A DNA stretch of 63,955 nucleotides, the filler included, from an uncultured bacterium (GTDB lineage Bacteria; CAYJRR01): NCBI GenBank assembly GCA_964372275.1. It is 4 parts of 4 records of this genome, joined end to end, with 100 filler letters (N's around TTAATTAATTAA, not from the genome) between each part and the next. Parts side by side here need not be neighbours in the genome. Positions count along the whole stretch, not along the records: positions 1 to 16,194 come from CAYJRR010000101.1; positions 16,295 to 32,442 come from CAYJRR010000102.1; positions 32,543 to 48,536 come from CAYJRR010000103.1; 1 more part is not named here. The stretch is one strand, 5' to 3'. A program made the position numbers and the translations under genes. The notes beneath the pieces were generated by a model that was not told the origin of the DNA, ran no database searches, and saw only the letters and a list, made by a program, of their open reading frames with translations. The first letter of the stretch is position 1. Every line of letters begins with the position of its first letter. Shown here one piece after another: positions 1-48,536 of the stretch.

Positions 1-626
1 GCGATGCCATCTCGCTCTCCGGCGCGGCCGACGGCGCCCTGGCCGAGGTCGGGGCGATGCTCGTCCGGATGCGCGAGCTGGCGATCCAGTCTCTCAACGG
101 CTCGAACGGCACGGAGGAGCGCAAGACGATGGAGACCGAGTACCGGCTCCTGATCGACGAGATCGACCGGCTCGCCCAGGCCACGAAGTTCAACGGCGTG
201 GAGCTGATCGCCGGCGGAACCGACACCGTGTTCCAGGTCGGCAGCGAGAACAACAGCACCAACCGGATCACCGTCAGCGCGGTCAACGCGCTGGTGACCG
301 CGGCCGGCCTGAACATCTTCAGCACGCACGTCTCGAACGCCACGTCAGCCGGCGCCGCCGTCAACCGGATCGACACCGCCATCGACCTGGTGAGCGGTTA
401 CCGGGGCAAGTTCGGCGCGGCCCTGAACCGCGTCAACAGCACCGTCGCCGCCCTGGCCAGCATGATCCAGAACACCATGGCTGCGGAGAGCCGCATCCGC
501 GACGTCGACGTCGCCATGGAGACGGCCGAGTTCACGCGTGCCCAGGTGCAGCAACAGGCGGGCGTCGCCGTCCTTGCGCAGGCGAACACCCTCACCCAGT
601 CTGCGCTCCAGCTCCTCCGATTCTAG
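1..626 (+). CDS. fliC: Flagellin, 5'-truncated (subfamily A)
   Basis: Frame open from position 3 ([27 protein letters not shown]); C-terminal [30 protein letters not shown]. Confidence 0.95.
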   Translation, partial: DAISLSGAADGALAEVGAMLVRMRELAIQSLNGSNGTEERKTMETEYRLLIDEIDRLAQATKFNGVELIAGGTDTVFQVGSENNSTNRITVSAVNALVTAAGLNIFSTHVSNATSAGAAVNRIDTAIDLVSGYRGKFGAALNRVNSTVAALASMIQNTMAAESRIRDVDVAMETAEFTRAQVQQQAGVAVLAQANTLTQSALQLLRF

Positions 627-696
627 TGAAGGATCCGTCCCACCCACCGGCGCACGACGAAAAGGGCCGGCGGCGCACCCGGAAACCCACGCCGAA

Positions 697-712
697 ACCG
701 AATAGGTTCGTT
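697..712. promoter_or_regulatory. Candidate palindromic operator ACCGAA-N4-TTCGTT
   Basis: One of five AT-rich 16-mers of the form A(A/C)C(G/T)AA-N4-TT(C/A)GTT, each upstream of a flagellin block. Confidence 0.45.
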
Positions 713-934
713 CACGATGCAACCATCGCCTGACGACCGGCCCTTCGAGCGGTCGACGCCACGGTGTCCGCCACCTGGACCGGCAGACGGATCGACGATC
801 CGTCCGCCCGGCCCGCGTGTTCCGGCATCCGACTCCACGGCCCGTCGTCCCTCTTGCGGCAACGCTCCGATTCGGCGCCGACTCGGTCGGCCGTCCACGC
901 CCCTTTCTCTCACTCACACCACCAGGAGATCGCC

Positions 935-1765
935 ATGGCAATGACCATCAACACCAACATCGCCAGCGTCGAGGCCCAGCGACACTTGTCGGTCAACTCC
1001 CGACGGCTCGAAAACTCGATTGCCCGACTTTCGAGCGGCCTCCGCATCGCCAGCGCCAGCGACGACGCGGTAGGACTCTCACTGTCGGAAAAGATGCGTG
1101 CCCAGATCCGGTCGCTCCGACAGGCGGAGCGGAACGCCGGCGACGCCATCTCGCTTTCGGGCGCGGCCGACGGCGCCCTGGCCGAAGTCGGCTCGATGCT
1201 CGTCCGGATGCGGGAGCTGGCGATCCAGTCGCTCAACGGGTCCAACGGCACCGAAGAGCGCAAGACGATGGAGACCGAGTACCGCCTCCTGATCGACGAG
1301 ATCGACCGCCTCGCCCAAGCCACAAAGTTCAACGGGGTCGAGCTGATCGCCGGCGGCAACGACACGGTGTTCCAGGTCGGAAGCGAGAACAACAGTACCA
1401 ACCGGATCACCGTCAGCGCCGTCAACGCGCTGGTCTCGGCGGCCGGACTGAACATCCTCAGCACTCACGTCTCGAACGCGGTGTCGGCCGGGGCCGCCGT
1501 CAACCGGATCGATACCGCCATCGACCTGGTGAGCGGCTACCGCGGAAAGTTCGGCGCGGCGCTCAACCGCGTCAACAGCACCGTGGCCGCGCTGGCCAGC
1601 ATGATCCAGAACACCATGGCAGCGGAGAGTCGCATCCGCGACGTCGACGTGGCGCTGGAAACCGCCGAATTCACCAGGGCCCAGGTGCAGCAGCAGGCCG
1701 GCGTCGCGGTTCTAGCGCAAGCGAACACCCTCACCCAGTCCGCTCTGCAGCTCCTTCGTTTCTAG
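935..1765 (+). CDS. fliC: Flagellin, 276 aa (subfamily A)
   Basis: RBS CAGGAG before ATG 935; [23 protein letters not shown]; flagellin C-terminus. Confidence 0.97.
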   Translation: MAMTINTNIASVEAQRHLSVNSRRLENSIARLSSGLRIASASDDAVGLSLSEKMRAQIRSLRQAERNAGDAISLSGAADGALAEVGSMLVRMRELAIQSLNGSNGTEERKTMETEYRLLIDEIDRLAQATKFNGVELIAGGNDTVFQVGSENNSTNRITVSAVNALVSAAGLNILSTHVSNAVSAGAAVNRIDTAIDLVSGYRGKFGAALNRVNSTVAALASMIQNTMAAESRIRDVDVALETAEFTRAQVQQQAGVAVLAQANTLTQSALQLLRF

Positions 1766-1832
1766 CTCCGCGACCGGCCCGCGCGGTCGTTCCGGATCCC
1801 GGTTCCTACACCCACTACACCAGGAGTGAGAC

Positions 1833-2663
1833 ATGGCACTGACCATCAATACCAACATCGCCAGCGTCGAGGCCCAGCGACACCTTTCGGTAAATTCCCG
1901 CCGACTGGAGAACTCCATCGCTCGACTTTCGAGCGGCCTCCGCATCGCAACCGCGAGCGACGACGCGGTAGGCCTCTCGTTGTCGGAGAAGATGCGGGCT
2001 CAGATCCGATCGCTCCGGCAGGCCGAGCGGAACGCCGGCGACGCCATCTCTCTTTCCGGCGCGGCCGATGGCGCGCTGGCCGAGGTCGGCTCGATGCTCG
2101 TCCGGATGCGGGAGCTGGCGATTCAGTCGCTCAACGGATCCAACGGCACGGAAGAGCGAAAGACGATGGAGACCGAGTACCGGCTCCTGATCGACGAGAT
2201 CGACCGGCTCGCCCAGGCCACGAAGTTCAACGGCGTCGAACTGATCGCCGGGGGCAACAGCACGGTGTTCCAGGTCGGAAGCGAGAACAACAGCACCAAC
2301 CGTATCACCGTCAGCGCGGTCAATGCGCTGGTCTCGGCGGCCGGACTGAACATCCTCAGCACCCACGTCTCGAACGCCGTCTCGGCCGGGGCCGCCGTCA
2401 ATCGGATCGACACCGCCATCGACCTGGTGAGCGGGTACCGCGGAAAGTTCGGCGCGGCGCTCAATCGCGTCAACAGCACCATCGCCGCACTGGCCAGCAT
2501 GATCCAGAACACCATGGCCGCGGAAAGCCGCATCCGCGACGTCGACGTGGCGATGGAAACCGCCGAGTTCACGCGATCCCAGGTCCAGCAGCAGGCCGGC
2601 GTCGCCGTGCTCGCTCAAGCGAACACCCTCACCCAGTCCGCGCTCCAGCTGCTCCGATTCTAG
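1833..2663 (+). CDS. fliC: Flagellin, 276 aa (subfamily A)
   Basis: RBS CAGGAG; full N- and C-terminal flagellin motifs; 6 aa differences from 935-1765. Confidence 0.97.
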   Translation: MALTINTNIASVEAQRHLSVNSRRLENSIARLSSGLRIATASDDAVGLSLSEKMRAQIRSLRQAERNAGDAISLSGAADGALAEVGSMLVRMRELAIQSLNGSNGTEERKTMETEYRLLIDEIDRLAQATKFNGVELIAGGNSTVFQVGSENNSTNRITVSAVNALVSAAGLNILSTHVSNAVSAGAAVNRIDTAIDLVSGYRGKFGAALNRVNSTIAALASMIQNTMAAESRIRDVDVAMETAEFTRSQVQQQAGVAVLAQANTLTQSALQLLRF

Positions 2664-2714
2664 CCACGCGCCCACGGTCGCCCGCCCGTTCGAACACTCA
2701 CGAGGGGAAGGCCT

Positions 2715-3545
2715 ATGGCATTGACCATCGCGAACAACATCGCCAGCGTCGAGGCACAACGACACCTGTCGGTCAATTCACGCCGACTTGAGAGCTCCAT
2801 CGCTCGATTGTCGAGCGGCCTCCGGATCGCAACCGCGAGCGACGACGCGGTCGGGCTCTCTTTGTCGGAGAAGATGCGTGCCCAGATCCGATCGCTCCGG
2901 CAGGCCGAACGGAATGCCGGCGACGCCGTCTCGCTTTCCGGAGCGGCCGACGGCGCGTTGGCCGAGGTCGGGTCGATGCTCACCCGAATGCGGGAGTTGG
3001 CGATCCAATCGCTCAACGGCTCGAACGGCACCGAGGAGCGCAAGACGATGGAGACCGAGTACCGGCTCCTCATCGCCGAGATCGACCGGCTCGCCCAGGC
3101 CACGAAGTTCAACGGCGTCGAATTGATCGCCGGCGGCAGCAGCACCGTGTTCCAGGTCGGAAGCGAGAACGACAGTACCAACCGGATCACCGTCAGCGCC
3201 GTCAACGCGCTGGTCTCGGCGGCCGGACTGAACGTCCTCAGCACCCACGTCTCGAACGCCGTCTCGGCCGGAGCTGCCGTCAACCGGATCGACACCGCCA
3301 TCGACCTGGTGAGCGGCTACCGCGGAAAGTTCGGCGCGGCGCTCAATCGCGTCAACAGCACCATCGCCGCCCTGGCCAGCATGATCCAGAACACCATGGC
3401 CGCGGAAAGCCGCATCCGCGATGTCGACGTGGCGCTGGAGACCGCCGAGTTCACGCGGGCCCAGGTCCAACAGCAGGCCGGCGTCGCCGTGCTGGCCCAG
3501 GCGAACACCCTCACCCAGTCCGCGATCGCGCTGCTGCGTTTCTGA
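2715..3545 (+). CDS. fliC: Flagellin, 276 aa (subfamily A)
   Basis: Full flagellin N/C motifs; RBS GAGGGG. Confidence 0.97.
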   Translation: MALTIANNIASVEAQRHLSVNSRRLESSIARLSSGLRIATASDDAVGLSLSEKMRAQIRSLRQAERNAGDAVSLSGAADGALAEVGSMLTRMRELAIQSLNGSNGTEERKTMETEYRLLIAEIDRLAQATKFNGVELIAGGSSTVFQVGSENDSTNRITVSAVNALVSAAGLNVLSTHVSNAVSAGAAVNRIDTAIDLVSGYRGKFGAALNRVNSTIAALASMIQNTMAAESRIRDVDVALETAEFTRAQVQQQAGVAVLAQANTLTQSAIALLRF

Positions 3546-3581
3546 TCCCGTAGCTCGAATCTCGAACGCCGGAGAGACACC

Positions 3582-3965
3582 ATGAACGGACGGCCGACGC
3601 GCGAATGCGCGCCCGTGGCCCCTGCGAACTCCTGGGACTCCACCCTCCTGCTATACGACACGGCCCTCCAGGCCGCGTATCGGGCTGAGCAGGCAATTCG
3701 CCGCGGGGACGATGGCGACCGGCGCCAATGCCTTTCCCGAGCGCTCACGTGCGTGCGCGAGATCTCGGCGTCCGGAGACCTCGGCCTGACACCCGAGCGA
3801 CGCGCCCTTCGCGCGCGGATCCATTCGAGACTGACCGGCCTCCTCTTCACCGCAAACGCCGGCTCGGCGCTGGCCGCGTTGTCGACCGCCTCCCGGATCC
3901 TCGCCGTTCTGCGCGCAGGACACCTTTCCACGGACCGACAGCCGACATCCGCCCTCCTGCACTGA
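3582..3965 (+). CDS. Divergent FliS-like flagellin export chaperone
   Basis: 127 aa; LLYDTAL..A..AI..GD...LSRAL..V.EI...ANA...RIL..LR follows the FliS four-helix pattern; RBS GGAGA; lacks SLD and the C-terminal W. Confidence 0.65.
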   Translation: MNGRPTRECAPVAPANSWDSTLLLYDTALQAAYRAEQAIRRGDDGDRRQCLSRALTCVREISASGDLGLTPERRALRARIHSRLTGLLFTANAGSALAALSTASRILAVLRAGHLSTDRQPTSALLH

Positions 3966-4197
3966 AAGGAGCCGCCATGCCAATGACGCCACCGGGCACC
4001 GGACCGCCCGCCACCGCCTGACCGACTCACGCGGCACGCACATCGAGAACGCTCGCCACCCGAGGCACCCGATTCGCCACCGCCGCTCGAAGGCCGGCGG
4101 ACCGTTTCACCGGACGACGCGGGATCGACCGCCGAGACCGAAACCGAAACGCACCGAAGCGCGATGTCACGCAGGAACGGCGACCTCTCGGACTTTT

Positions 4198-4213
4198 AAC
4201 GAATCAATTAGTT
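4198..4213. promoter_or_regulatory. Candidate palindromic operator AACGAA-N4-TTAGTT
   Basis: Near-perfect inverted repeat in an AT-rich patch ~65 nt upstream of flagellin 4278. Confidence 0.5.
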
Positions 4214-4277
4214 CTTAAAACACGGACGGACCGAGCCCCCGGAAGGACCGGCGGGCCGGATCAAAGGGGAAATCGAA

Positions 4278-5114
4278 ATGTCCATCTTCATCAATTCGAA
4301 CCAGGCGAGCATCACCGCGCAACGAAGTCTCGCGGAGAGCACCCGACGCCTCGAGCGATCCGTCGCCCGACTGTCGAGCGGACTTCGCATCAATACCGGC
4401 GCGGACGACCCGGCCGGACTCGCGATCTCCGACAGACTCAAGGCGCAGATCCGGTCCTACCAGCAGGCGCAGCGGAACGGAGCCGACGCCGCCTCCCTGT
4501 CCGCGCTCGCGGACGGTCAAGCCGGCGAGATCACCGAACTGCTCGTCCGGATGCGCGAGCTTGCCGTCGAGGCGTTGAACGGCACCACCACGACAAGCGA
4601 CAGGGAAGCGCTCGACGAGGAGTACCAGGACCTGATCGACGAGATCGACCGCATTGCCAAGACCACCGAGTTCAACGGGATCAATCTCCTGGACGGAACG
4701 GTGAGCTCGATCGAGTTCCAGATCGGCATCGCGAGCGCCGCGGCCGATCGGATCAAGCTGAGCCTCACCGATCTCACCGTCTCGAGCGGCGGACTCGACG
4801 TCGGCTCGACGACCCTCGACGACACCGCCGCGAACATCCAGAACTACATCGACAAGATCGACACCGCCATCGACGAGGTGAGCAAGGCTCGCAGCAAGTT
4901 CGGAGGAACCTCCGCCCGCGTCGACTTCGCCCTCTCCGCCATTGGAACGCTCGTGCAGAACCTTTCGGCGGCGGAAAGTCGGATCCGCGATCTCGACATC
5001 GCGGCGGAGACCGCGGAGTTCGCGCGAAACCAACTGATGCAGGAGGCCGGCGTCGCGGTACTCGCCCAGGCGAACTCGCTCCCGGAGATCGCGATCTCGC
5101 TCCTTCGGTTCTAG
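4278..5114 (+). CDS. fliC: Flagellin, 278 aa (divergent, acidic)
   Basis: RLSSGLRIN..ADDPAG; TEFNGINLLDG; NLSAAESRIRDLD; AQANSLP..LLRF. Confidence 0.95.
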   Translation: MSIFINSNQASITAQRSLAESTRRLERSVARLSSGLRINTGADDPAGLAISDRLKAQIRSYQQAQRNGADAASLSALADGQAGEITELLVRMRELAVEALNGTTTTSDREALDEEYQDLIDEIDRIAKTTEFNGINLLDGTVSSIEFQIGIASAAADRIKLSLTDLTVSSGGLDVGSTTLDDTAANIQNYIDKIDTAIDEVSKARSKFGGTSARVDFALSAIGTLVQNLSAAESRIRDLDIAAETAEFARNQLMQEAGVAVLAQANSLPEIAISLLRF

Positions 5115-5472
5115 CCCCCCGCTTCCTGCGAAAACCGCTCCATTCCGTACGTGAACCTGATCGGACGAATGACCTTCGCCTCGCCGCCGTTCGCCGGGCA
5201 CGACCGATACGGGAGAGTTACCCCCTTTTCTCTCCCGCGGCGTGCCCGGCGGCCGGCGTCGAGGCGATGCCCTCGCGCAGCTTGCCGTCCGCCGTCGGCT
5301 TCCGGTCGAACTTCGCCTCGTCTTCGGAGTCGCGGCGCCGCCCGTGGGAAGTCACCCCCTTTCTTCCCCGCGGCGTCGCACTCCGGAGACGCGCCGACGG
5401 CCGCAGCGCCGTATCGCGGAAGACTCGTTGGACAACGTCGCACGGCGTCGCCGCCGTAGAGGTCCGCCGACC

Positions 5473-6303
5473 ATGAACGTGACCATTCGAACGAACGTCT
5501 ATTCGCTCGTCGCGCGTCGCAACATCGCCCAGGCCACACGCGATATCGAGCGCTCCGTCGAGAGACTCTCGTCCGGACTCCGCATCAACTCGGCCGCCGA
5601 CGACCCGTCGGGCCTTCGGATTGCTGACGGATTGAAGTCGAAGATCCGATCGCTGGAATCGGCGCGACGCAATGCCGAAGACGGAGTCTCGCTGACCGAC
5701 GTCGCGGACGGTACGCTCGACGAGGTGAACAACATGCTCACGCGAATGCGCGAGCTCGCCGTCGAATCTCTCAATGGCACGCTGTCCACCGACGACCGGG
5801 ACGTGCTCCAGGAGGAGTTCGACGACCTCCGCGACGAGATCGGCCGGCTCGCATCCACCACCGAGTTCAACGACATCGGTCTGCTGGACGGGCAGGTGAC
5901 GTCGGTCAAGATACACGTGGGCCATGATCCGGGCGCGGTCAATCGCGTCACCATCGAACTCGCCGACACCCGGGTCACCACGCTCGGGATCGCCACGATC
6001 ATGGTGAACGTCGGCACGACGGCGTCCGACACCGCTATCGACAAGCTGGACATCGCCATCGGAAAGGTCTCCGAAGCGCGCGGAAAGTTCGGGGCCGCCG
6101 CCTCCCGGCTCGAGGCTGCAGAGTCTTCGATCGATTCCCTTCTCGCCGGGTTCGGATCGGCGGAGAGCGCGATCCGGGACGCCGACATCGCCGCGGAGAC
6201 GGCCGACCTGGTCCGGTCGCAGATCATCCAGGAGGCCGGGATCGCGGTGCTGACCCAGTCGCAATCGATCTACAGGACGGCGCTGAAGTTGCTGTCGTTT
6301 TGA
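5473..6303 (+). CDS. fliC: Flagellin, 276 aa (most divergent copy)
   Basis: MNVTIRTN..RLSSGLRINSAADDPSG..RMRELAV..TEFND..AESAIRDAD..LLSF; ATG 5473 gives normal length. Confidence 0.93.
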   Translation: MNVTIRTNVYSLVARRNIAQATRDIERSVERLSSGLRINSAADDPSGLRIADGLKSKIRSLESARRNAEDGVSLTDVADGTLDEVNNMLTRMRELAVESLNGTLSTDDRDVLQEEFDDLRDEIGRLASTTEFNDIGLLDGQVTSVKIHVGHDPGAVNRVTIELADTRVTTLGIATIMVNVGTTASDTAIDKLDIAIGKVSEARGKFGAAASRLEAAESSIDSLLAGFGSAESAIRDADIAAETADLVRSQIIQEAGIAVLTQSQSIYRTALKLLSF

Positions 6304-6327
6304 ACCGCGGTCTACGATGCGTGGGTG

Positions 6328-7413
6328 ATGTCGAAGAGCGGCAAGAAGCCGATCGACGTTCGGAAGCTCGCGGGGTCCGGCGCGACGGAGATCGTCGCGG
6401 GTCAGGGGTACTTCCCCGTCCTGGACCAGGCGAGCGCGGACGGCGATCTCTACTGCGTCCTCCGCGGGGGAGCGGCCCATTTCGGGAACCGGGGCCGCGT
6501 CGACCTCGTCGTCTCCCGCGACGGCGGAAAGACCTTCACCGCGCCGAAGGTGGTTGCAAGCAGCGATTGGGACGACCGGAACCCGGCGCTTGGCGTCGCA
6601 CCGGACGGGGCCTTGGTGCTCGCGTACTGGAGATACGGATCGTACGAACCCGACGGCTCGCTGAACCGATCGCTGTATCGATACGAAACCTGCGTCGTTC
6701 GCTCCGAAAACAAGGGGGAGTCCTGGTCCCGGTCCGCCCTCGACAGCGCGCCCTACGTCACTCCCTCGCCGTACGGCCGGATCGTCACCTTGCCCGGCGA
6801 TCCGCCGACGCTCCTGCTCCCGGTCTACGGCCCCCGCCTTCCGAAGACGTGGGCCGGGCGCGAGACGGAGTTCTGGACGGGATTCGTCCGGTCGACCGAC
6901 GGAGGACGGACCTTCGGCGAATCGACCATCGCGGCGGCGAACTACAACGAAGCGTCGTACGTTCTCCTCCCCGATCGGGTTCTTCTCGGCGCGTTCCGTA
7001 CGACCGGCCGGGACGCCGCGATCCACGTCGCTCGCTCCAAGGACGGCGGTCGCACCTTTTCCGAACCGCGTCCCGTCACCGAAGCGAACGAACACCCGGC
7101 CGACCTCGTCGTCCTTTCCGACGGGTCGGTCCTCCTCGTCTACGGACATCGACGCGAGCCGTACGGAGTCCGAGCCCGCGTTTCGCGCGACGGGGGGGAG
7201 TCCTGGATCGACCGGACGCTCGTTCTCGCGGACGACGGATCGACGATCGACTGCGGGTACCCGTCGGTCGTTCGCCGAAAGGACGGAACGATCCTCGTCG
7301 CCTACTACTCGAGTCCCGATACGGCGGACGTCCAGAACGGCGTGATCAAGGGAGCCTGGGCGAAGCTCCTCCGATTCGACGAGCGCGCTCTTCTCGCGGC
7401 CATCGATCGATGA
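6328..7413 (+). CDS. BNR/Asp-box sialidase-fold (GH33-like) protein
   Basis: Five Asp-boxes (SRDGGKTF, SENKGESW, STDGGRTF, SKDGGRTF, SRDGGESW) and C-terminal GYPS motif; no obvious signal peptide; alternative GTG start 6325. Confidence 0.8.
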   Translation: MSKSGKKPIDVRKLAGSGATEIVAGQGYFPVLDQASADGDLYCVLRGGAAHFGNRGRVDLVVSRDGGKTFTAPKVVASSDWDDRNPALGVAPDGALVLAYWRYGSYEPDGSLNRSLYRYETCVVRSENKGESWSRSALDSAPYVTPSPYGRIVTLPGDPPTLLLPVYGPRLPKTWAGRETEFWTGFVRSTDGGRTFGESTIAAANYNEASYVLLPDRVLLGAFRTTGRDAAIHVARSKDGGRTFSEPRPVTEANEHPADLVVLSDGSVLLVYGHRREPYGVRARVSRDGGESWIDRTLVLADDGSTIDCGYPSVVRRKDGTILVAYYSSPDTADVQNGVIKGAWAKLLRFDERALLAAIDR

Positions 7414-7429
7414 TGTAATTCGAGTCAAC

Positions 7430-8458
7430 GTGCGCTACTTCGAAGGAAAATCCGTCCTCATCACGGGCGGAACCGGGTCGCTCGGCAAGGCCCTCACCCG
7501 ACTGCTCCTTTCGGAAGCCCTCGTTCGGAAGCTGGTCATCTACAGCCGGGACGAATTGAAGCAGTTCGAGATGTCCCAGATGAAAGGGATCGGGGACGAC
7601 CGGAGGACGCGGTTCTTCCTCGGCGACGTCCGGGACCGGGACCGCCTGGCGCGGGCGTTCGAGGGCGTCGACATCGTGATCCACGCCGCGGCGCTGAAGC
7701 AGGTACCGGCCGCCGAATACAACCCGTTCGAGGCCGTGAAGACGAACATCATCGGCGCGCAGAACATCATCGACGCGGCGATCGATTGCCGTGTGCCGCG
7801 GGTGATCGCGCTCTCGACCGACAAGGCGGCGAACCCGGTCAACCTGTACGGGGCGACCAAGCTCTGTTCGGACAAGTTGTTCGTCGCCGGCAACGCCTAC
7901 GTCGGCGCCAACCAGACCCGGTTCGCGGTCGTCCGCTACGGAAACGTGGTCGGAAGCCGCGGAAGCGTCATCGGCCTGTTCCTCCGCATGCGGAACGAAT
8001 CGGTTCTCCCGATCACCGACGCCCGGATGACCCGATTCTGGATCACGATCGAGCACGCCGCGCGTTTCGTCGTCGACTGCGCGTGCAAGATGAGCGGCGG
8101 CGAGATCTTCGTGCCGAAGCTTCCGAGCACCAAGATCACCGACGTCGCCCGGGCGATCAACCCCAAGGCCCGGCACGAGATGATCGGGATCCGGCCGGGG
8201 GAGAAGCTGCACGAGGTGATGATCCCCGAGGACGACGCGCGCAAGGCGCTCGACATCGGCGATCGATACGTCGTCCTGCCCCCGCAGGAGTGGCGCGCGA
8301 CGGACCGCGAGTTTTCCGGAAAGCCGTGCCCGGAGGGATTCCGGTACGCGTCCGACGCCAACGAGAAGTGGCTCAATACCGAGGAGATCCGGAAGATGAT
8401 CGCCCTGCTCGACCTGCCCGATGCGAAGGAGTGGGCCAAGGAGCAGGGGCTCGCCTGA
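7430..8458 (+). CDS. pseB: UDP-N-acetylglucosamine 4,6-dehydratase (inverting)
   Basis: TGGTGSLG, YSRDELKQ, HAAALKQVPAAEYNPFE, LSTDKA.NP.NLYGATK, RYGNV.GSRGSV, GIRPGEKLHE. Confidence 0.93.
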   Translation: MRYFEGKSVLITGGTGSLGKALTRLLLSEALVRKLVIYSRDELKQFEMSQMKGIGDDRRTRFFLGDVRDRDRLARAFEGVDIVIHAAALKQVPAAEYNPFEAVKTNIIGAQNIIDAAIDCRVPRVIALSTDKAANPVNLYGATKLCSDKLFVAGNAYVGANQTRFAVVRYGNVVGSRGSVIGLFLRMRNESVLPITDARMTRFWITIEHAARFVVDCACKMSGGEIFVPKLPSTKITDVARAINPKARHEMIGIRPGEKLHEVMIPEDDARKALDIGDRYVVLPPQEWRATDREFSGKPCPEGFRYASDANEKWLNTEEIRKMIALLDLPDAKEWAKEQGLA

Positions 8459-40541: not shown

Positions 40542-40589
40542 CCCGCCGAGATCCGGCCCACGACGAATGAACCGATCCGAAACATGAAC

Positions 40590-40605
40590 ACCTAACGAAT
40601 TCGTT
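40590..40605. promoter_or_regulatory. Candidate palindromic operator ACCTAA-N4-TTCGTT
   Basis: Matches the shared motif; ~75 nt upstream of flagellin 40681. Confidence 0.45.
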
Positions 40606-40680
40606 CCGTCGGATCCCGAAGCGCCGACCGTACAAAGCGACCTTCCGAAACCGCCCTTCCACACCGAAAAGGAGATCCCA

Positions 40681-41508
40681 ATGGCCATCACCGTGAACAC
40701 CAACGTCGCCAGCATCACCGCGCAGCGAAATCTCTCCCTCAACTCGCGCCGTCTCGAGGGCTCAATCTCGAAGCTGTCGAGCGGCCTCCGGATCGCGACC
40801 GCAGCCGACGACTCGGCGGGGTTGGCGATCTCCGAGAAGATGCGAGCCCGTATCCGCTCCCTCCAGCAGGCGCAACGGAACGCGGCGGACGGCGTTTCGC
40901 TCGCGAACACCGCGGACGGCGCGCTGAACGAGATCAGCGGCATGCTCGTCCGGATGCGCGAGCTCGCCGTTCAGGCGGTCAACGGCACCAGCGACCAGGA
41001 TCAACGCAATGCGCTCGACGCCGAGTTCCAGTCGCTTCTCGATGAGATCACTAGAGTCTCCAGATCCACCGTCTTCAATGACATCAAGCTTCTGAACGGC
41101 TCCACCACGGTGGTCTTCCAGGTCGGAAGCGAAGTCTCCGTCGATTCGCGCATCACCGTCACGCCGATCGATACCACGCTCACCACGCTCGGCCTGGACG
41201 GCGAAGCGATCAACGGGACGGCGACCGACATCCGCACGGCGATGACCGCGATCGATTCGGCCGTGGACGACGTCAACGCCGCCCGAAGCAAGGTCGGCGC
41301 GGTCGTCAACCGCATGAGCACCACGGTCTCGATCGTCGGAAGCCTCATCCAGAACACCATCGCGACCGAAAGCCGCATCCGGGACGCCGACGTCGCCGTC
41401 GAAACCGCCGAATTCACCCGCGCTCAGGTCTTGCAGCAGGCCGGAGTCGCCGTCCTCGCGCAAGCGAACTCGATCACCCAGGCAGCCTTGCAGCTGCTTC
41501 GGTTCTGA
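40681..41508 (+). CDS. fliC: Flagellin, 275 aa (subfamily E)
   Basis: Full N/C motifs; RBS AAGGAG. Confidence 0.97.
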
Positions 41509-41550
41509 TCCGCTTCCGCCGTCCCCAACGATACACACGAGGAGATTCCC

Positions 41551-42378
41551 ATGGCCGTCACCGTGAACACGAACGTCGCGAGCATCACGGCACAGCGCAA
41601 CCTCTCGATGAACTCCCGGCGACTCGAGAGCTCGATCTCGAAGTTGTCGAGCGGACTTCGCATCGCCAGCGCCGCGGACGACTCGGCCGGTCTGGCGATT
41701 TCCGAAAAGATGCGCGCGCGTATCCGCTCCCTGCAGCAAGCACAGCGGAACGCCGCGGACGGGGTCTCCCTTGCGAACACGGCCGACGGTGCTCTGAACG
41801 AGATCAGCGCGATGCTCGTGCGCATGCGGGAACTCGCGGTTCAGGCGGTGAACGGCACGAGCGACCAGGACCAACGGGACGCGCTCGACGCCGAGTTCCA
41901 GTCCCTCCTGGAGGAAGTCGCCCGGGTTTCGAAGTCGACCGTCTTCAACGACATCAAGCTCCTCAACGGCTCGAACACCGTGGTCTTCCAGGTCGGCAGC
42001 GAAACGTCCGTCGATTCCCGCATCACGGTAACGCCGATCGATACGACGGTCACGACCCTCGGTCTGGACGGCGAGGCGATCAACGGCTCGGCCGGAGCAA
42101 TTCGGAACGCCATGACGGCGCTCGACACGGCGATCGACAGCGTCAACGCGGCCCGGAGCAAGGTCGGCGCCGTCGTGAACCGGATGAGCACCACGGTATC
42201 GATCGTCGGAAGCCTGATCCAGAACACCATCGCCACCGAGAGCCGCATTCGAGACGCCGACGTCGCGGTGGAGACCGCCGAATTCACCCGAGCACAGGTC
42301 CTCCAGCAAGCGGGAGTCTCGGTTCTCGCGCAGGCCAACTCGATCACGCAGGCCGCTCTCCAGCTCCTCCGCTTCTAG
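41551..42378 (+). CDS. fliC: Flagellin, 275 aa (subfamily E)
   Basis: Full N/C motifs; RBS GAGGAG. Confidence 0.97.
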
Positions 42379-42414
42379 AACCCCACCTCCGACCGACCCC
42401 GCAAGGAGCCCCGA

Positions 42415-43242
42415 ATGGCCGTCACCGTCAACACCAACGTCGCGAGCATCACCGCCCAGCGGAACCTCTCGCAGAACACCCGCCGGCTCGAGAGCTCGAT
42501 CGCGAAGCTCTCCAGCGGACTGCGAATCGCATCCGCCGCAGACGACTCGGCCGGACTGGCGATCTCCGAGAAGATGCGCGCTCGCATCCGGTCGCTCCAG
42601 CAGGCCCAACGGAACGCGTCCGACGGGGTCTCGCTCGCGAACACGGCCGACGGCGCCCTGAACGAGATCAGCGCGATGCTCGTCCGGATGCGCGAGCTGG
42701 CGGTTCAAGCCGTGAACGGCACCAGCGATCAAGATCAGCGGGACGCGCTCGACGCCGAGTTCCAGTCACTCCTCGACGAGATCGCGCGGGTCGCGAAGTC
42801 GACCGTCTTCAACGATTTGAAGTTGCTGAACGGCACCAACACCGTCGTCTTTCAGGTCGGAAGCGAGACGTCGACCGACTCCCGCATCACCGTCACCCCC
42901 GTCGACATGACGGTCACCACGCTCGGACTTGACGGTGAGGCGATCAACGGTTCCGCCGGCGCCATCCGCGCCGCCATGACGGCCATCGACGGCGCCATCG
43001 ATGCCGTCAATGCCGGGCGCAGCAAGTTCGGTGCGGTCGTGAACCGCATGAGCACGACGGTCTCAATCCTCGGAAGCCTGATCCAAAGCACGATCGCGAC
43101 CGAGAGTCGCATACGCGACGCGGACGTGGCGGCGGAGACCGCCGAGTTCACCCGCGCGCAGGTCCTCCAGCAGGCCGGCGTCTCCGTCCTCGCGCAGGCC
43201 AACGCCACGACCCAGGCGGCGCTCCAGCTCCTTCGATACTGA
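42415..43242 (+). CDS. fliC: Flagellin, 275 aa (subfamily E)
   Basis: Full N/C motifs; ends LLRY. Confidence 0.97.
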
Positions 43243-43292
43243 CCTTCGGCTCCGACTTCGACCGATCCGACAACTTCGAAAGGAAATACCCC

Positions 43293-44123
43293 ATGGCACT
43301 CATCGTGAACACCAACATCGCCAGTATCAACGCGCAGCGCCACCTCGCCGCGAACACTCGCCGACTGGAGGGCGCGATCGGCCGGCTCTCGAGCGGACTC
43401 CGGATCACCGGAGCCGCCGAAGACTCCGCCGGCCTCGCGATCTCCGAGAAGATGCGCGCCAAGATCCGCTCGCTCCAGCAAGCACAGCGAAACGCGTCGG
43501 ACGGTATTTCACTCGCCCATACCGCCGACGGGGCCATGAATGAAATCAGCGCAATGCTCGTCCGGATGCGCGAGCTCGCCGTACAGGCCGCCAACGGCAC
43601 GAGCGATCAGGACCAACGGGACGCGTTGAACGACGAGTACCAGTCGCTCTTGAGCGAGATTCAACGGGTTGCCCAGTCCACCGTCTTCAACAACATCGAG
43701 CTCCTGAACGGCGGCAGCGCGGTTGTGTTCCAGGTCGGTAGCGAGACCTCGACGATCGACCGCATCAGCGTCGGTGTCGTCGACATGAAGATCACCGCGC
43801 TCGGCGTCGACGGAACGGTAATCAACGCCGCCAATGTGAGCGTCATTCGCGATTCGATCAATGCAGTCGATGCCGCGATCACCGAGGTAAACGAGGCGCG
43901 CAGCCAGTTCGGAGCCGCGGTGAACCGGATGACGACGACGGTCTCGATCCTCGGCAGTCTGGTCCAGAACACGATCGCCGCCGAGAGCCGCATCCGGGAT
44001 GCCGACGTCGCGATCGAGACGGCCGAGTTCACGCGAGCCCAGGTCCTGCAGCAGGCCGGCGTCTCCGTACTCGCCCAAGCCAATTCGATCACGCAGTCCG
44101 CGCTTCAGCTGCTCCGGTTCTAG
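43293..44123 (+). CDS. fliC: Flagellin, 276 aa (subfamily E)
   Basis: Full N/C motifs; shares QAANG, ALNDE and INAANVS with 37689. Confidence 0.97.
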   Translation: MALIVNTNIASINAQRHLAANTRRLEGAIGRLSSGLRITGAAEDSAGLAISEKMRAKIRSLQQAQRNASDGISLAHTADGAMNEISAMLVRMRELAVQAANGTSDQDQRDALNDEYQSLLSEIQRVAQSTVFNNIELLNGGSAVVFQVGSETSTIDRISVGVVDMKITALGVDGTVINAANVSVIRDSINAVDAAITEVNEARSQFGAAVNRMTTTVSILGSLVQNTIAAESRIRDADVAIETAEFTRAQVLQQAGVSVLAQANSITQSALQLLRF

Positions 44124-44277
44124 GGTCCGCCGCGAACGTCGGCCGACGGATACGGAGGAATGCACATGTATCGCCACGCGCATGAACGGAACAAAGGTCC
44201 ACCACGGGGCGAACCGAACCTTCACCGACCTTGCCCTGCGGCACCCCGACCGAACTCGAACGATCTGGAACACCCGA

Positions 44278-44658
44278 ATGAACGACAAGATTCACATCGA
44301 GGATGAAGCAGAGGTGGAGTCCCCGGTTCGGCTGATCGTCGACCACTACGACGCCGCGCTCAAGGCGATCTACCGCGCGCACGTTGCCCACGAAAGAGGA
44401 GATCGAATCACGAGGGGCAAGGCGGTATCCCAGGCGCTCGCGATACTTCAGGAACTCACGCAGTCGTTGGATCCGCTTCCCGCCCCGCGGCTCGTCCGCC
44501 GGCTCATCGAGCTCTATCTCTGGACCGGCCAGCTCCTCGTCGAAGCAAACGTTTTCGACGACGGTGGAAACCTCGCGAAGGCGGCAAGGATCCTGTCCAC
44601 CTTGCGAAGCGGCTGGAGCGACCTCCACGACCGGATGCGTTCCGAGACCCGCCAGTGA
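44278..44658 (+). CDS. fliS: FliS-family flagellin export chaperone
   Basis: SP.RLIV..YDAAL..I..A....GD...AVSQA..ILQEL..SLD..L.ELY..LL.EAN..RIL.TLRSGW; alternative in-frame ATG at 44182. Confidence 0.85.
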   Translation: MNDKIHIEDEAEVESPVRLIVDHYDAALKAIYRAHVAHERGDRITRGKAVSQALAILQELTQSLDPLPAPRLVRRLIELYLWTGQLLVEANVFDDGGNLAKAARILSTLRSGWSDLHDRMRSETRQ

Positions 44659-44687
44659 CGTCGTCCTCTTACGCAGGAAGGATTTCC

Positions 44688-45386
44688 ATGCACCTCACGA
44701 TTTCGAGATCGTTGCTCCTGGAGAACCCCCGCGAGACGGTGCGTCCCGCGGAGCGCCGGTCGCCCGCGACACCCGCGGCGGGCGCGGACTCGGGCGGCTC
44801 CCGACCTGCCCCCGACCGGAGGAGCAGCTCCGAACGAGCCCCTCGACCGTCGCGCACCATCCGCCTACTGCAAGACGAACTGCGTGGCGCAAACGAGGCG
44901 CTCTCGATCGCTTCCTCGACTGCGACCGAGCTCGATCTCCTTCGATCGAACGACTCGATCGATCGCTCGGCGGTGGCGTCCACGATCCGTGAGGTCGTGG
45001 CGGCCGCGATCCGCCGCCTCGCCGATCTCGAAGCGGGCAGAACGGACGCACCCGCATCCGCTGCCCGGTCCGAATGGGTCGCGCTTCTCGGGACCGCGTT
45101 GCGCGCTGCCGAGGAGACGTTCAACCAATCCGGCGACCCTTCGGCGGCTCGGGCCCAGGCCCTCGCGACCACACTTCGAAAGATCGAGCGGGAGGCCGGG
45201 TTGGCCGCCGGACGGATCGCCCGCGACATCAACGACCGAATTTCCGAGCAGGGCTCCAGCGGAGCTCCAGACGACGAACCCACTCCCGAACGGACCCGCC
45301 ATCGAATGGTCCTCCAGCGGTCGGCCGCCGTGCTCGCCCAGGCCAACGCCGCGGCAGTCTCCGCCGTCAGTCTCCTTCGATTCTGA
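44688..45386 (+). CDS. Degenerate flagellin-like protein, 232 aa
   Basis: RBS AGGAAGGA; MHLTIS start; IRLLQDELRGANEALSIA resembles [18 protein letters not shown]; ends AVLAQANAAAVSAVSLLRF. Confidence 0.7.
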   Translation: MHLTISRSLLLENPRETVRPAERRSPATPAAGADSGGSRPAPDRRSSSERAPRPSRTIRLLQDELRGANEALSIASSTATELDLLRSNDSIDRSAVASTIREVVAAAIRRLADLEAGRTDAPASAARSEWVALLGTALRAAEETFNQSGDPSAARAQALATTLRKIEREAGLAAGRIARDINDRISEQGSSGAPDDEPTPERTRHRMVLQRSAAVLAQANAAAVSAVSLLRF

Positions 45387-45431
45387 CCGGCGACCCGGCC
45401 CGCCGCAGAACTTCTCGCCCAAGGAGCAACC

Positions 45432-46268
45432 ATGGCACTCATCGTCTCCAACAACTTCGCCGCACTCAGCGCCCAGCGAAACCTCGCCAATACGTCGAGA
45501 CGACTGGAGAACTCGATCAGCCGGCTCTCCAGCGGTCTCCGCGTGGCGACCGCGGCCGACGACGCCGCCGGCCTCTCGATCTCGGAGCGTATGCGTGCAC
45601 AGATCCGCTCGCTCCAACAGGCGCAACGCAACGCCAACGACGGAATCTCCATGGCCAACACCGCGGACGGCGCGCTCAATGAGATCAGCGCCATGTTGAT
45701 CCGGATGCGGGAGCTCGCGATCCAGTCGTTGAACGGAACCAGCGGAACCGCGGAACGAAACGCGCTCGACGCCGAATACCAGGGTCTCGTCGACGAGATC
45801 GATCGTGTCGCCAAGACCACCACGTTCATGGGGGCGAAGATTCTGGACGGCAGCATGGTCGTAAACGGAATCGAATTCCAAGTCGGCCCAGGAACCACGT
45901 CCAACGACCGGATCCTCGTTTCGGGAGCCGCCGCGACGGCGAGCCAGCTGCTTCTCTCCGGCACGGACATCAATACCGATATCGATACCACCAAGGCCGC
46001 GATCACGCAGGTAGACGGCGCGATCGACAAGGTCAACGCGACCCGAAGCCGGTTCGGTGCGGTCGCGAACCGGATGAACGCAACGATCACCAGCATTGCC
46101 ACGGTGCTGCAGAACCAGATGGCGACTGAGAGCCGCATCCGCGATGTCGACGTCGCGGCCGAAACCGCCGAATTCGCGCGGCTCCAGGTGCTGCAACAGG
46201 CCGGTGTCGCCGTCCTGGCGCAGGCGAACACGCTGACCCAGTCCGCACTCTCCCTGCTCCGGTTCTAG
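45432..46268 (+). CDS. fliC: Flagellin, 278 aa (subfamily F)
   Basis: Full N/C motifs; close paralogue of 39708. Confidence 0.97.
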
Positions 46269-46313
46269 CCGTCGACGGCAGCATCGAACCGCACACACAC
46301 ACGAGGTGAAACC

Positions 46314-46538
46314 ATGCTCGATCCGATCGTCGCACCCGCTCGGCAGCCATCGCGCAGGATCTTCCGGCTGGAGCTCGAAGCGCCCTCGACCGAATCGGTA
46401 CCACCCGGCGAGACCGTCCCCTGGACGCGCCTCGCGGCGGAGGCCGGCTCAGAGCTCGCCCGCGATGCGGCCGCGGCTGTGGCCGTCCAATCGTCCGGAC
46501 TGACCGCCTCCTCCTGGTCCTTGCTCGCGTTCGAGTGA
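46314..46538 (+). CDS. 74-aa small protein resembling only the flagellin C-terminal tail
   Basis: RBS GAGGTG; AAAAVAVQSSGLTASSWSLLAF aligns to [22 protein letters not shown]. Confidence 0.55.
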   Translation: MLDPIVAPARQPSRRIFRLELEAPSTESVPPGETVPWTRLAAEAGSELARDAAAAVAVQSSGLTASSWSLLAFE

Positions 46539-46573
46539 TTTCCGAAACACCGATCGAGCCCCGGAGAACTCTC

Positions 46574-46975
46574 ATGAACGGATACGACCGCTACCTGGAA
46601 ACCGACGTCGCGACCCGATCGCCATTGTCGATCGTGATTGCGCTCTACGACGGAGCGCTACGCGCCCTCGGACTCGCGCGGTCCTCGACCGATCGGTTCT
46701 CCCTCGGACGCTACGCCTGCCGCGCGAACCTGATCGTAGGGGAGCTCGCGGCTTCGCTCGACGAAAAGGCGGCGCCCGAGATGTCCAGTTCCTTGCACCG
46801 GCTCTACACCACCGTGTCCGCGTTGATCGTCGACGGAAGCGAGCGCGGTGATCCCAAGCCATTGGAGGAGGCCGCACGGATCCTCACCGTCTTGCGACGC
46901 GGTTGGGCGTCGATTCCCAACGCCAGCGGATCGCCGGACCCGAGATCGAGACCGCCGTCGCGCGGAGGTGGCTGA
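46574..46975 (+). CDS. fliS: FliS-family flagellin export chaperone (most canonical copy)
   Basis: MNGYDRY....V.T.SP...VI.LYDGALR.L..A; RA..IV.EL..SLD; L..LY; LEE...IL..LR.GW; RBS GGAGA. Confidence 0.88.
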   Translation: MNGYDRYLETDVATRSPLSIVIALYDGALRALGLARSSTDRFSLGRYACRANLIVGELAASLDEKAAPEMSSSLHRLYTTVSALIVDGSERGDPKPLEEAARILTVLRRGWASIPNASGSPDPRSRPPSRGGG

Positions 46976-47044
46976 CGCCACTCCCGACGGTTCCCTCCAA
47001 CTACTTTCAGCCTTCAACCAAACGATAAATACCGGGAGCGAAAG

Positions 47045-47878
47045 ATGGCACTCACGATCAACACCAACATCGCCAGCGTCGAAGCTCAGCGCAATCTCTC
47101 GTCCAACAACCGCCGGCTCGAAGGATCGATCGCCCGACTCTCGAGCGGCCTCCGGATCGCGACAGCTGCGGACGACGCTGTCGGTCTTTCGCTGTCCGAG
47201 AAGATGCGAGCACAGATCCGCTCCCTGAAGCAGGCCGAGAGAAACGCGAGCGATGCCGTCTCGCTCGCGGGTGCGGCGGACGGAGCGCTGGCCGAGGTCG
47301 GCTCGATGCTCGTCCGGATGCGTGAGCTGGCCGTCCAGTCGCTCAACGGTTCGAACGGGACCGAGGAACGCAAGACGATGGAGACCGAATTCCGCCTGCT
47401 GATCGAGGAGATCGACCGCCTGGCCCAAGCGACGAAGTTCAACGGCGTCCAGCTGATCGCGGGCGGCAACGACACCGTTTTCCAGGTTGGCAGCGAAACC
47501 AACAGCACGAACCAGATCACCGTGAGCGCGGTCAACACATTGGTCTCCGCGGCCGGCCTGAACCTCTTGAGCGCCCACGTCTCCACCGCCGTCTCCGCCG
47601 GCGCCGCCGTCGCGAAGATCGACTCCGCCATCGACAAGGTCAGCGGCTTCCGCGGCAAGTTCGGAGCCGCGCTCAACCGCGTCAACAGTACTGTCGCCGC
47701 CCTGGCCAGCATGATCCAGAACACCATGGCCGCCGAGAGCCGCATCCGCGACGTCGACGTCGCACTCGAGACCGCCGAGTTCACGCGCGCGCAGGTGCAG
47801 CAGCAGGCGGGCGTGGCGGTCCTCGCGCAGGCCAATACGCTCACGCAATCCGCCCTCCAACTGCTGCGGTTCATCTAG
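47045..47878 (+). CDS. fliC: Flagellin, 277 aa (subfamily A)
   Basis: Full N/C motifs; EERKTMETE signature shared with contig-1 copies. Confidence 0.97.
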   Translation: MALTINTNIASVEAQRNLSSNNRRLEGSIARLSSGLRIATAADDAVGLSLSEKMRAQIRSLKQAERNASDAVSLAGAADGALAEVGSMLVRMRELAVQSLNGSNGTEERKTMETEFRLLIEEIDRLAQATKFNGVQLIAGGNDTVFQVGSETNSTNQITVSAVNTLVSAAGLNLLSAHVSTAVSAGAAVAKIDSAIDKVSGFRGKFGAALNRVNSTVAALASMIQNTMAAESRIRDVDVALETAEFTRAQVQQQAGVAVLAQANTLTQSALQLLRFI

Positions 47879-48129
47879 TCCGTTCGTCGCGGTTCGGAAA
47901 CTCCGCGAAACAGAGTCCGATCGCCACAGCGCCCCGTCTCCCATCGAGGAGGTAGATCGATGTCACGCAGGGTCTCATTCCATCCACGATCGAGACCGCC
48001 ACTCCGCCGATGGAGATCCGTGAAGTTCGTCGGTTTGGTGCTCGACGCTGCAGATGAGGCGCGCCAGAGCCTCCACGTCGGCACGCTCGAGGCCCTCCCT
48101 TTCTTCTCTCACAACACGAGGAACCAAAC

Positions 48130-48536
48130 ATGGCACTGACTATCAATACGAACATCGCCAGCGTCGAAGCCCAACGAAACCTGTCGTTCAACAACCGGCG
48201 CCTCGAGGGATCGATCGCCCGACTCTCCAGCGGTCTCCGGATCGCGACGGCCAGCGACGATGCCGTCGGCCTTTCCTTGTCGGAAAAGATGCGGGCCCAG
48301 ATCCGATCGCTGAAACAGGCGGAACGAAACGCCGGTGACGCCATCTCGCTCGCGGGCGCGGCGGACGGCGCGCTGGCCGAGGTCGGCGCGATGCTGGTCC
48401 GCATGCGGGAGCTGGCGATCCAGTCACTCAACGGATCCAACGGGACCGAGGAACGAAAGACGATGGAGACCGAGTACCGGCTCCTGATCGACGAGATCGA
48501 CCGCCTCGCCCAGGCCACGAAGTTCAACGGCGTCGA
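48130..48536 (+). CDS. fliC: Flagellin, 3'-truncated (subfamily A)
   Basis: MALTINTNIAS..ATKFNGV running into the contig end. Confidence 0.95.

Follow-up and report, generated by a model that had tools for sequence, protein, structure and literature searches.

About half of the flagellated bacteria keep several flagellins, and the reason for this is still largely open (PMC6299084). The question is raised in an extreme natural form by a stretch of DNA of 63,955 nucleotides (nt), hereafter called the window, from the assembly GCA_964372275.1 of an uncultured bacterium. On two of its contigs the window carries at least 19 flagellin genes, together with genes for FliS-like export chaperones and small genes that end in a copy of the flagellin tail. 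What would a bacterium build with so many flagellins, and how would it handle their export? The answer that we consider probable is that the genes form a tandem array of structural flagellins which builds heteropolymeric, probably glycosylated filaments, and that the FliS chaperones and the open reading frames (ORFs) with a flagellin tail tune the export of the subunits.

The window consists of four metagenome contigs, which are separated by runs of N around a TTAATTAATTAA spacer at 16195-16294, 32443-32542 and 48537-48636. Contig 1 spans positions 1-16194, contig 2 spans 16295-32442, contig 3 spans 32543-48536 and contig 4 spans 48637-63955, the last with an additional internal 100-N scaffold gap. 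The order and the relative orientation of the contigs in the window are uninformative. The content of guanine plus cytosine (GC) is 62-75%, and the owner of the DNA is an uncultured, high-GC, Gram-negative-type bacterium.

Six flagellin ORFs were found on contig 1 and thirteen on contig 3, all of them on the plus strand. The first-pass annotation of this DNA had counted at least 19 flagellins, six at 1-6303 and thirteen at 32543-48536, and had suggested a HMMER search with the two flagellin domain models; the ORFs, the Pfam matches and our own profile search all gave the same count. That is, Flagellin_N (PF00669) was detected above its curated cut-off in 19 of 19 ORFs, with a best expectation value (E) of 6e-42, and Flagellin_C (PF00700) in 18 of 19, the exception being G13, which is cut by the contig end before that region. 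A profile made from the 19 ORFs recovered exactly those at E<=7.6e-74 among the 353 six-frame ORFs of contigs 1 and 3, and the next matches were two ORFs at E ~6-8e-4 (T1 and T2, described below). The annotation had also called all of the genes co-oriented. This holds within each contig; across the contigs, which are separate pieces, a shared strand has no meaning.

Sixteen of the 19 copies are complete, and each of these is 274-278 amino acids (aa) long and lacks D2/D3, just as had been annotated. The Flagellin_N match of F2 extends over residues 5-142 and its Flagellin_C match over residues 190-274, so that there is no room for a D2/D3 insert. Over its whole length, F2 can be aligned with solved filament flagellins of 270-282 aa. 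Judged from these sequences, the products would polymerise into a filament after export by the flagellar type III pathway. An AGGAG-like Shine-Dalgarno site lies 6-10 nt before the ATG in every flagellin gene whose start is visible. The genes are packed densely, thirteen in 16 kb on contig 3 and six in 6.3 kb on contig 1, and the locus is of the type known from Magnetococcus, with at least ten flagellin genes, mostly in one tandem array.

The identity matrix and the paralogue tree divided the copies into five multi-member groups and two divergent singletons, and the annotated "about six subfamilies" is a fair description. Group A contains F1 (3-626), F2 (935-1765), F3 (1833-2663), F4 (2715-3545), G12 (47045-47878) and G13 (48130-48536), which are 88-98% identical. 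F2, F3 and F4 have 276 aa each and G12 has 277 aa. In F1, the start of contig 1 truncates the gene on the 5' side, so that ~69 N-terminal residues are missing; the rest matches columns 70-275 of the profile (E 5.5e-100) and is 93-97% identical in aa to F2-F4. F2 scored 126.3 bits with Flagellin_N and 77.1 bits with Flagellin_C. G12 shows 88-91% aa identity but 81-85% nt identity to F1-F4, and G13, truncated on the 3' side where contig 3 stops, lacks its C-terminal half and matches Flagellin_N only. Group B consists of G1 (32545-33369), in which 2 aa are missing at the start of contig 3, and G2 (34029-34856; 275 aa), which are 93% identical, and group C of G3 (35440-36264) and G4 (36301-37125), both of 274 aa and 92% identical. 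Group D contains G7 (40681-41508), G8 (41551-42378) and G9 (42415-43242), each of 275 aa and 87-92% identical, with two outliers, G10 (43293-44123; 276 aa; 73-75% to G7-G9) and G5 (37689-38525; 278 aa; 67-69% to G7-G10). Group E is the pair G6 (39708-40541; 277 aa) and G11 (45432-46268; 278 aa), which are 81% identical. The remaining two copies, F5 (4278-5114; 278 aa) and F6 (5473-6303; 276 aa), are singletons on long branches, with 42-55% identity to all other copies.

Within the groups, aa identity was 81-98% and identity at third codon positions 55-82%; the synonymous divergence (dS) was 0.30-1.0, and the ratio of nonsynonymous to synonymous divergence (dN/dS) was 0.015-0.17. For example, dN/dS and dS were 0.034 and 0.41 for F3 against F2, and 0.060 and 0.87 for G4 against G3. 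Such nearly identical proteins with a high dS and a low dN/dS indicate old paralogues under purifying selection. The values of dS and the third-position divergence rule out recent amplification, strain variants and assembly stutter as the source of the copies. Every copy is intact under this strong and long purifying selection, which argues that the individual paralogues matter.

The divergence between groups is not spread evenly. Among representatives of groups A-E it was concentrated in alignment columns 136-200, where the mean identity was 33-37% as compared with 62-79% in the flanks, and the most conserved segment of the flagellins was the C-terminal tail, with 71-79% identity. By analogy with other flagellins, columns 136-200 probably correspond to the exposed part of the D0/D1-only subunit. 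A difference that lies mainly in an exposed middle would be expected if the array were a repertoire of alternatives, of which one or a few groups are expressed at a time, according to the condition or against flagellotropic phages or grazers, so that the middle differs on purpose. A proposal of this kind has been made for the 40 flagellin copies of Termitispirillum, for which the authors suggest multiple functions and avoidance of recognition (10.1101/2025.08.05.668610). A possible signal for group-wise regulation by a dimeric factor was also seen. A palindrome-like 16-mer, AACKAANNNNTTMGTT (AACKAA-N4-TTMGTT), gave five matches with at most 1 mismatch, against 0.10 expected. Four of them lie upstream of genes that lead a group and that are each preceded by a long spacer: ACCGAATAGGTTCGTT at 697-712, 223 nt upstream of F2; AACGAATCAATTAGTT at 4198-4213, 65 nt upstream of F5 (0 mismatches); AACTAATGTTTTCGTT at 37574-37589, 100 nt upstream of G5 (0 mismatches); and ACCTAACGAATTCGTT at 40590-40605, 76 nt upstream of G7 (1 mismatch). 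The fifth match, at 48173-48188, is inside G13. The 16-mer may be the operator of a dimeric regulator, but its pattern was derived post hoc from the sites that it then matched, and the statistic is inflated for this reason.

Other observations speak against such a repertoire, and we consider it unlikely. Many spacers are only 35-70 nt long, which suggests operon-like units and hence co-transcription of neighbouring genes that belong to different groups. In a terminator scan, the number of sites was at or below the expectation from shuffled sequence; no plus-strand site was found between flagellin genes on contig 3, and the single one there was inside G13. In addition, strain MO-1 expresses all 14 of its flagellins, and all of them are glycosylated and occur in the filament (PMC7175107). 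The MO-1 filament is a precedent that supports a filament of mixed subunits, and it is this kind of filament that we favour for the present locus.

We then asked whether contigs 1 and 3 carry one array or two. For a 10-kb stretch of contig 3, 73-82% of the sampled words were present in three sequencing runs from two studies, and short Logan contigs from these runs left none of the 30 depth bins of contig 3 uncovered, in most cases matching it without a mismatch. One of the three runs may be the source sample, so that their independence is partial. A Logan piece at 40895-42428 begins in G7, contains the whole of G8 and reaches the first part of G9, and further pieces at 36782-37789, 43284-44644 and 43998-45273 also bridge junctions between genes. 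The junctions bridged by such pieces are G3/G4, G4/FliS-a/G5, FliS-b/T1, G7/G8/G9, G10/FliS-c/T2, T2/G11 and FliS-d/G12; among the pieces listed, none covers contig 3 as a whole. Joints found by Logan mapping with sides of 20-22 letters were dismissed as cross-matches between repeats.

The end of contig 3 and the start of contig 1 both lie in group A. The tetranucleotide correlation among contigs 1-3 was 0.91-0.98, and that between the non-flagellin part of contig 1 and contig 3 was 0.93. Contigs 1 and 3 are likely to stem from the same genome, and likely to carry a single array of at least 19 genes. With S for a FliS-like gene, T and t for the tail ORFs, D' and D'' for the outliers of group D and a slash for the contig border, the likely order is ...B B C C S D' S T E D D D D'' S T E t S A A / A A A A S F5 F6, with the BNR-repeat gene, pseB, pseC and fapA after it. 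Because three of the contig ends fall within flagellin genes, the true count may exceed 19; if the two contigs overlap allelically, the count is 18.

The count could have been inflated by binning. In this case two related populations would have contributed the two contigs, and no single genome would have 19 copies; one genome might have the thirteen genes of contig 3 and a group A tail of its own, and the block F1-F4 would be another strain's counterpart of the stretch after G13. The material gives some grounds for such a concern, because the bin is of low depth (~3-14x in the runs containing the stretch), the contig ends show no exact overlap, and G13 and F1 share the same 66 codons with 98.5% aa identity. 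Over these codons, however, the nt identity is 90.9% and dS is 0.45, a value like those among F1-F4 (0.30-0.49), which are clear group A paralogues next to each other on one contig, so that it is best to regard G13 and F1 as separate genes. Over the conserved group A stretch at 48474-48536, the depth rose to ~4-7x that of a single contig in each of the three runs. Depth summed over contigs does not give a copy number and the pile-up is a weak hint, but it would agree with several group A genes that are about equally abundant in these samples. Taking also into account the tetranucleotide correlation of 0.93 and the fact that even an overlap at this one gene would leave an array of 18, we regard inflation by binning as very improbable.

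Five FliS-like genes, all on the plus strand, sit between the flagellin groups. The Pfam model FliS (PF02561) has a curated cut-off of 26.7 bits. FliS-b (38567-38953; 128 aa), FliS-c (44278-44658; 126 aa, with a possible earlier ATG at 44182) and FliS-d (46574-46975; 133 aa) scored 69.8, 71.4 and 67.1 bits, respectively. FliS-e (3582-3965; 127 aa; 33% identical to FliS-b) is borderline, with 26.1 bits, just below the cut-off, and FliS-a (37125-37535; 136 aa) is remote, being recognised by profile and fold without any Pfam match. Thus, of the five FliS-like genes that had been annotated, three stand on the family model and the other two on less direct evidence. FliS-b, -c, -d and -e are 33-41% identical to each other with 20 invariant columns. 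FliS-a is collinear with these four, to which it is 22-26% identical, and has 13 invariant columns in common with them, among them those of a RIL..LR motif; in a comparison of profiles (hhalign), it matched the four paralogues over 107 columns with a probability of 63% and an E of 6.9e-5. The structure model of FliS-a has four helices and a mean predicted local distance difference test (pLDDT) score of 77.8, and in a Foldseek search of the PDB its top 10 matches were all FliS, yet with E>=1.9e-3; both results are to be read with the fact that the input alignment of the model was made of FliS rows. A FliS profile run over the 353 ORFs of contigs 1 and 3 returned exactly these five, which were the profile's own rows, and the search thus shows only that further ones are absent. 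In analogy to known FliS, which wraps the last ~40 residues of flagellin and also binds FlgM and HP1076 (PMC7248283), the five proteins are predicted to bind the C-terminal ~40 residues of the flagellins.

The annotation had further listed three flagellin-derived ORFs. For two of them the derivation is supported. T1 (P0002; 38978-39664, plus strand; 228 aa) is an orphan whose last 29 residues match columns 247-275 of the flagellin profile with an E of 5.5e-4, and T2 (44688-45386, plus strand; 232 aa) is an orphan that matches columns 242-275 with an E of 8.1e-4. The third, t3 (46314-46538, plus strand; 74 aa), is an uncertain small ORF with a third-position GC of 0.78, whose match to columns 249-275 is weak. 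The likeness between T1 and T2 is confined to the last 39 aa, which are 46% identical, and their tail ends, MAQANAAPSAALTLLRF and LAQANAAAVSAVSLLRF, align with the flagellin C-terminus. T1 directly follows FliS-b, T2 directly follows FliS-c, and t3 is located just before FliS-d.

Apart from the tail, T1 is isolated. A word search of 5.8 billion proteins found no relative, and phmmer against 1.84 billion representatives found no credible one, the lone other match (E 8e-5) being to the arginine-rich residues 23-56 only. Searches of genome contigs gave 0 relatives of T1. No Pfam family matched T1 or T2, and no NCBIfam model matched T1. The possibility that these ORFs encode FlgM, the anti-sigma-28 factor, was rejected, since the FlgM family profile did not match (Pfam for both, NCBIfam for T1). 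A search of the PDB with T1 gave one weak match, to a 75-aa flagellin fragment (E 0.31). In a feature search of a protein atlas, the nearest clusters were of unnamed proteins of ~240-250 aa, some with Flagellin_N on 21-56% of their members, which we take as a lead only. The single-sequence model of T1 (pLDDT 42.3) was unusable, and the predicted complex of FliS-b with T1 scored 0.55, as compared with 0.37 for the control, which we read neither for nor against binding.

T1 and T2 carry a flagellin tail beside a fliS gene, and FliS binds that very tail. The most economical reading of these sequences is therefore that the two would be clients or competitors of FliS. Non-flagellin partners of FliS are known. 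FliS binds the anti-sigma factor FlgM and HP1076 of Helicobacter pylori and in this way regulates the expression of late flagellar genes or export, and the docking site of HP1076 on FliS is common with that of flagellin (PMC7248283). T1, T2 and t3 resemble these partners as candidates in that each adjoins a fliS gene, with binding as a prediction from sequence; unlike FlgM and HP1076, T1 and T2 reproduce the flagellin tail literally, and neither belongs to a Pfam family.

A bolder version may be stated here. A fliS paralogue and the tail orphan next to it could form a chaperone-decoy module, in which the decoy occupies or releases its own FliS and thereby gates the flagellin groups and the timing of their export. 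We offer this as a long shot. If it were true, more than seven classes of subunit would be laid down, by way of these modules, as a programmed series of segments in one filament or as several types of filament, and the modules would amount to a post-translational export timer made of flagellin fragments. Even in the simpler case, if the chaperones and the tail ORFs sort or time export, the locus provides defined pairs that can be tested in vitro without culturing the organism.

Our preferred interpretation may now be put together as follows. The many subunit types would give heteropolymeric filaments, probably glycosylated with pseudaminic acid; the five diverged FliS-type chaperones, encoded between the flagellin groups, would serve export; and the tail ORFs, as clients or competitors of FliS, would tune which flagellins are exported. 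An ordered export of the groups and a segmented filament, as imagined in the annotation, would be a further step, and for the present we treat them as conjecture.

Several points weigh against this interpretation. Among representatives of groups A-E, the mean identity of the tail was 79%, as compared with 37% in the middle. Because the tail is the most conserved segment, five diverged chaperones are not simply explained by tail-specific recognition. The tail match of t3 is not significant (E 3.1). Consensus promoters of the sigma-28, sigma-54 and sigma-70 types were not found: scans of 21 spacers for the sigma-54 and sigma-28 consensus gave nothing convincing, and the sigma-70 scan did not exceed the expectation from shuffled sequence. 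Among the listed runs that contain the contig 3 stretch there was no RNA run. Finally, contigs 1 and 3 do not overlap exactly at their ends, and both their adjacency and their shared genome rest on indirect evidence.

It should also be considered that part of the set is non-structural. F5, F6 and the tail ORFs might act as regulators or as secreted proteins outside the filament, which would then contain fewer than 19 types. There are precedents for both roles: of the flagellins of Caulobacter, five are structural and a further paralogue is regulatory (PMC7591256), and Vibrio species excrete flagellin homologues that are dispensable for the filament (PMC6692518). The two singletons are the natural candidates, because F5 is only 47-53% identical to the full-length copies (55% to the partial G13) and F6, the most divergent, only 42-49% (50% to G13). 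However, F5 and F6 both have full-length D0 and D1 (E 2e-125 and 5.6e-120, respectively) and retain the nearly invariant positions, and no sequence trait sets them apart from structural flagellins. The best NCBIfam matches of F6 are flagellin models, and FlgL scored far lower. We therefore think that a non-structural part of the set is a possibility to be kept in mind, though a rather doubtful one, and we continue to treat the 19 copies as filament subunits.

The genes directly downstream of the array on contig 1, all on the plus strand, bear on the second part of the interpretation, namely glycosylation. F6 is followed by a gene for a BNR-repeat (sialidase-fold-like) protein of 361 aa (6328-7413; Pfam BNR_2, 85.2 bits). 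Next come PseB, the inverting UDP-GlcNAc 4,6-dehydratase (7430-8458; TIGR03589, 480.8 bits, cut-off 407.75), and the aminotransferase PseC (8421-9614; TIGR03588, 477.4 bits, cut-off 423.5), and both pass the NCBIfam equivalog cut-offs. Since PseB and PseC follow the array, it is plausible from the gene content that the flagellins are glycosylated with a sugar of the pseudaminic-acid type. In the scanned ORFs of contigs 1 and 2, Pfam matches were absent for PseF, PseG, PseH, PseI and a Maf/FlmG-type glycosyltransferase. The fourth gene encodes a flagellar assembly protein of the FapA family (9611-11332; Pfam FapA 198.6 bits, FapA_N 61.7 bits); its frame was chosen by third-position GC, and its start is not fixed.

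How does this locus compare with known systems? The annotation gave about a dozen to fifteen flagellins as the size of the largest arrays. This agrees with the maxima given in reviews, 15 in strain MC-1 and 14 in MO-1 (PMC6299084, PMC7175107), but it is outdated: in a preprint of 2025-26, Termitispirillum cryptocerci is reported to have 40 copies and its sister T. reticulitermitis 15 (10.1101/2025.08.05.668610). Measured against those 40 copies, our 19 or more genes rank with the largest sets without setting a record. Multi-flagellin sets that have expanded are a known kind of feature, and the annotation's view of this array as the best candidate for an undescribed system is not borne out, in that present evidence points to no new kind of system.

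The closest likeness is to Magnetococcus MC-1 and MO-1, in which most flagellin genes also form one tandem array and more than one fliS is present (two in their case). The glycosylated flagellins of MO-1 are all found in its filaments. Our locus differs in having at least 19 copies, five interleaved FliS-like genes and adjoining tail orphans, and its flagellins are of another lineage, forming their own clade with three metagenome proteins. Termitispirillum, a genus of deferribacterotal (Deferribacterota) ectosymbionts, shares with our organism an extreme, lineage-specific flagellin expansion in an uncultured bacterium. The flagellin tree of that preprint used proteins of more than 350 aa, that is, proteins with an insert, in contrast to the 274-278 aa here, and its main text mentions neither a tandem order nor fliS. 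Several paralogous flagellins per filament, as we envisage them, are known from Caulobacter crescentus (six), Bdellovibrio bacteriovorus (six) and Shewanella putrefaciens (two). The flagellins of Shewanella are spatially ordered in the filament, which alters motility (PMC6299084), and those of Caulobacter are glycosylated by FlmG, with one paralogue being regulatory (PMC7591256). As compared with these three, the present locus has three times as many genes and groups, and chaperone paralogues inside the array. In the literature that our search returned, there was no description of five diverged, embedded FliS paralogues or of orphan tail ORFs; FliS paralogues were described as "two FliS" at most, and a search for FliS together with decoys gave nothing relevant.

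In a tree with their best matches, the 19 copies formed one starred clade with just three outside proteins, apart from 42 other best matches. Two of the three, P0008 and P0018 (79% and 66% identical to G2, respectively), grouped with group B, which indicates that at least this group predates the split from some unsampled relatives. Beyond the proteins of the window itself, none of 5.8 billion proteins exceeded 61% identity to F2. The flagellin of one genome (G001) was only 47-49% identical, a search of genome contigs with P0018 gave 58% as its best match, and an exact 30-mer search of metagenome contigs gave 0 matches. The annotation had recommended a count in related genomes. At 165 related flagellin loci of up to ~21 kb, one flagellin ORF was present in 98, two in 36, three in 21, four in 6, five in 3 and six in 1, three of the four loci with five or six genes being from metagenome-assembled genomes (MAGs) of Magnetococcales. 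Ten genomes checked in full had 0-9 matches to Flagellin_N, with FlgL counted in.

The nearest named flagellins outside the window, 53-54% identical to F2, come from MAGs of Myxococcota or "Deltaproteobacteria". In the phylum of one such Myxococcota MAG, 166 of 401 sampled genomes had a flagellin match; this search scored at most six candidates per genome and therefore gives no copy numbers. Flagellar assembly genes have been noted in uncultured Myxococcota (10.1101/2021.07.06.451402). Large genomes of that phylum (G091, G101, G106, G126, G151, G311 and others; ~3.6-10 Mb, several of them 8-10 Mb) showed the maximum of six F2 matches. The best E of these matches was ~1e-33 to 1e-36, as compared with 1e-55 to 1e-77 for clear flagellins, and there were ~25-56 first-look candidates.

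Housekeeping genes of contig 2 were compared in the same way. The best match of PurL was 64% identical, in "bacterium UBA2219", with 67% on one partial Tectomicrobia match, and identities to Binatia, Anaeromyxobacteraceae and Nitrospira were 60-64%. PurB was 52-61% identical among 21 relatives of the UBA2219 MAG, with one partial match at 64%, and at most 60% identical among 301 genomes from the phylum of a Myxococcota MAG. A query with Ppx gave a single unrelated match at 24% identity. PurL and PurB are thus about equally far from several phyla (58-64% over the full length), and they do not single out a lineage against which the annotation's remark on cultured members that mostly lack flagella could be judged.

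In the spacers of the array, two are unusually long: 33370-34028 (659 nt, between G1 and G2) and 34857-35439 (583 nt, between G2 and G3). No frame in them has a coding-like GC by codon position, and searches for flagellin, FliS and Rfam families gave no match in either. They may represent leaders, promoters or the remains of genes. An ORF at 33423-34025 (200 aa) was rejected as a gene, being of low complexity and without a coding signature in its GC by codon position.

On contig 1 beyond FapA (12329-16194), we noted an FG-GAP/ASPIC repeat protein of 727 aa, a protein with an EgtD-like, histidine-specific methyltransferase domain, and an outer-membrane protein of the LpxR family that is cut by the contig end. 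The LpxR-family protein fits a diderm cell. On contig 2, the purL ORF (23268-26162, minus strand) has 964 aa as called, and its relatives align only from residue ~205-240, so that either the true start is downstream or the protein has an N-terminal extension of ~230 aa; purQ lies directly upstream of it. The sole Rfam and ARAGORN match of the window is a transfer RNA for valine (tRNA-Val, anticodon GAC) at 20923-20998 on the plus strand of contig 2. Contig 4 contains two open frames on the plus strand, 48638-52678 and 52780-63954 (1347 and 3725 codons), which flank the 100-N gap, take up the entire contig and run off the contig ends. In the first of them, Pfam recognised the domains Big_9 (111.9 bits) and Cadherin_5 (99.3 bits), and the two frames are probably parts of a single giant surface protein that exceeds 5000 aa.

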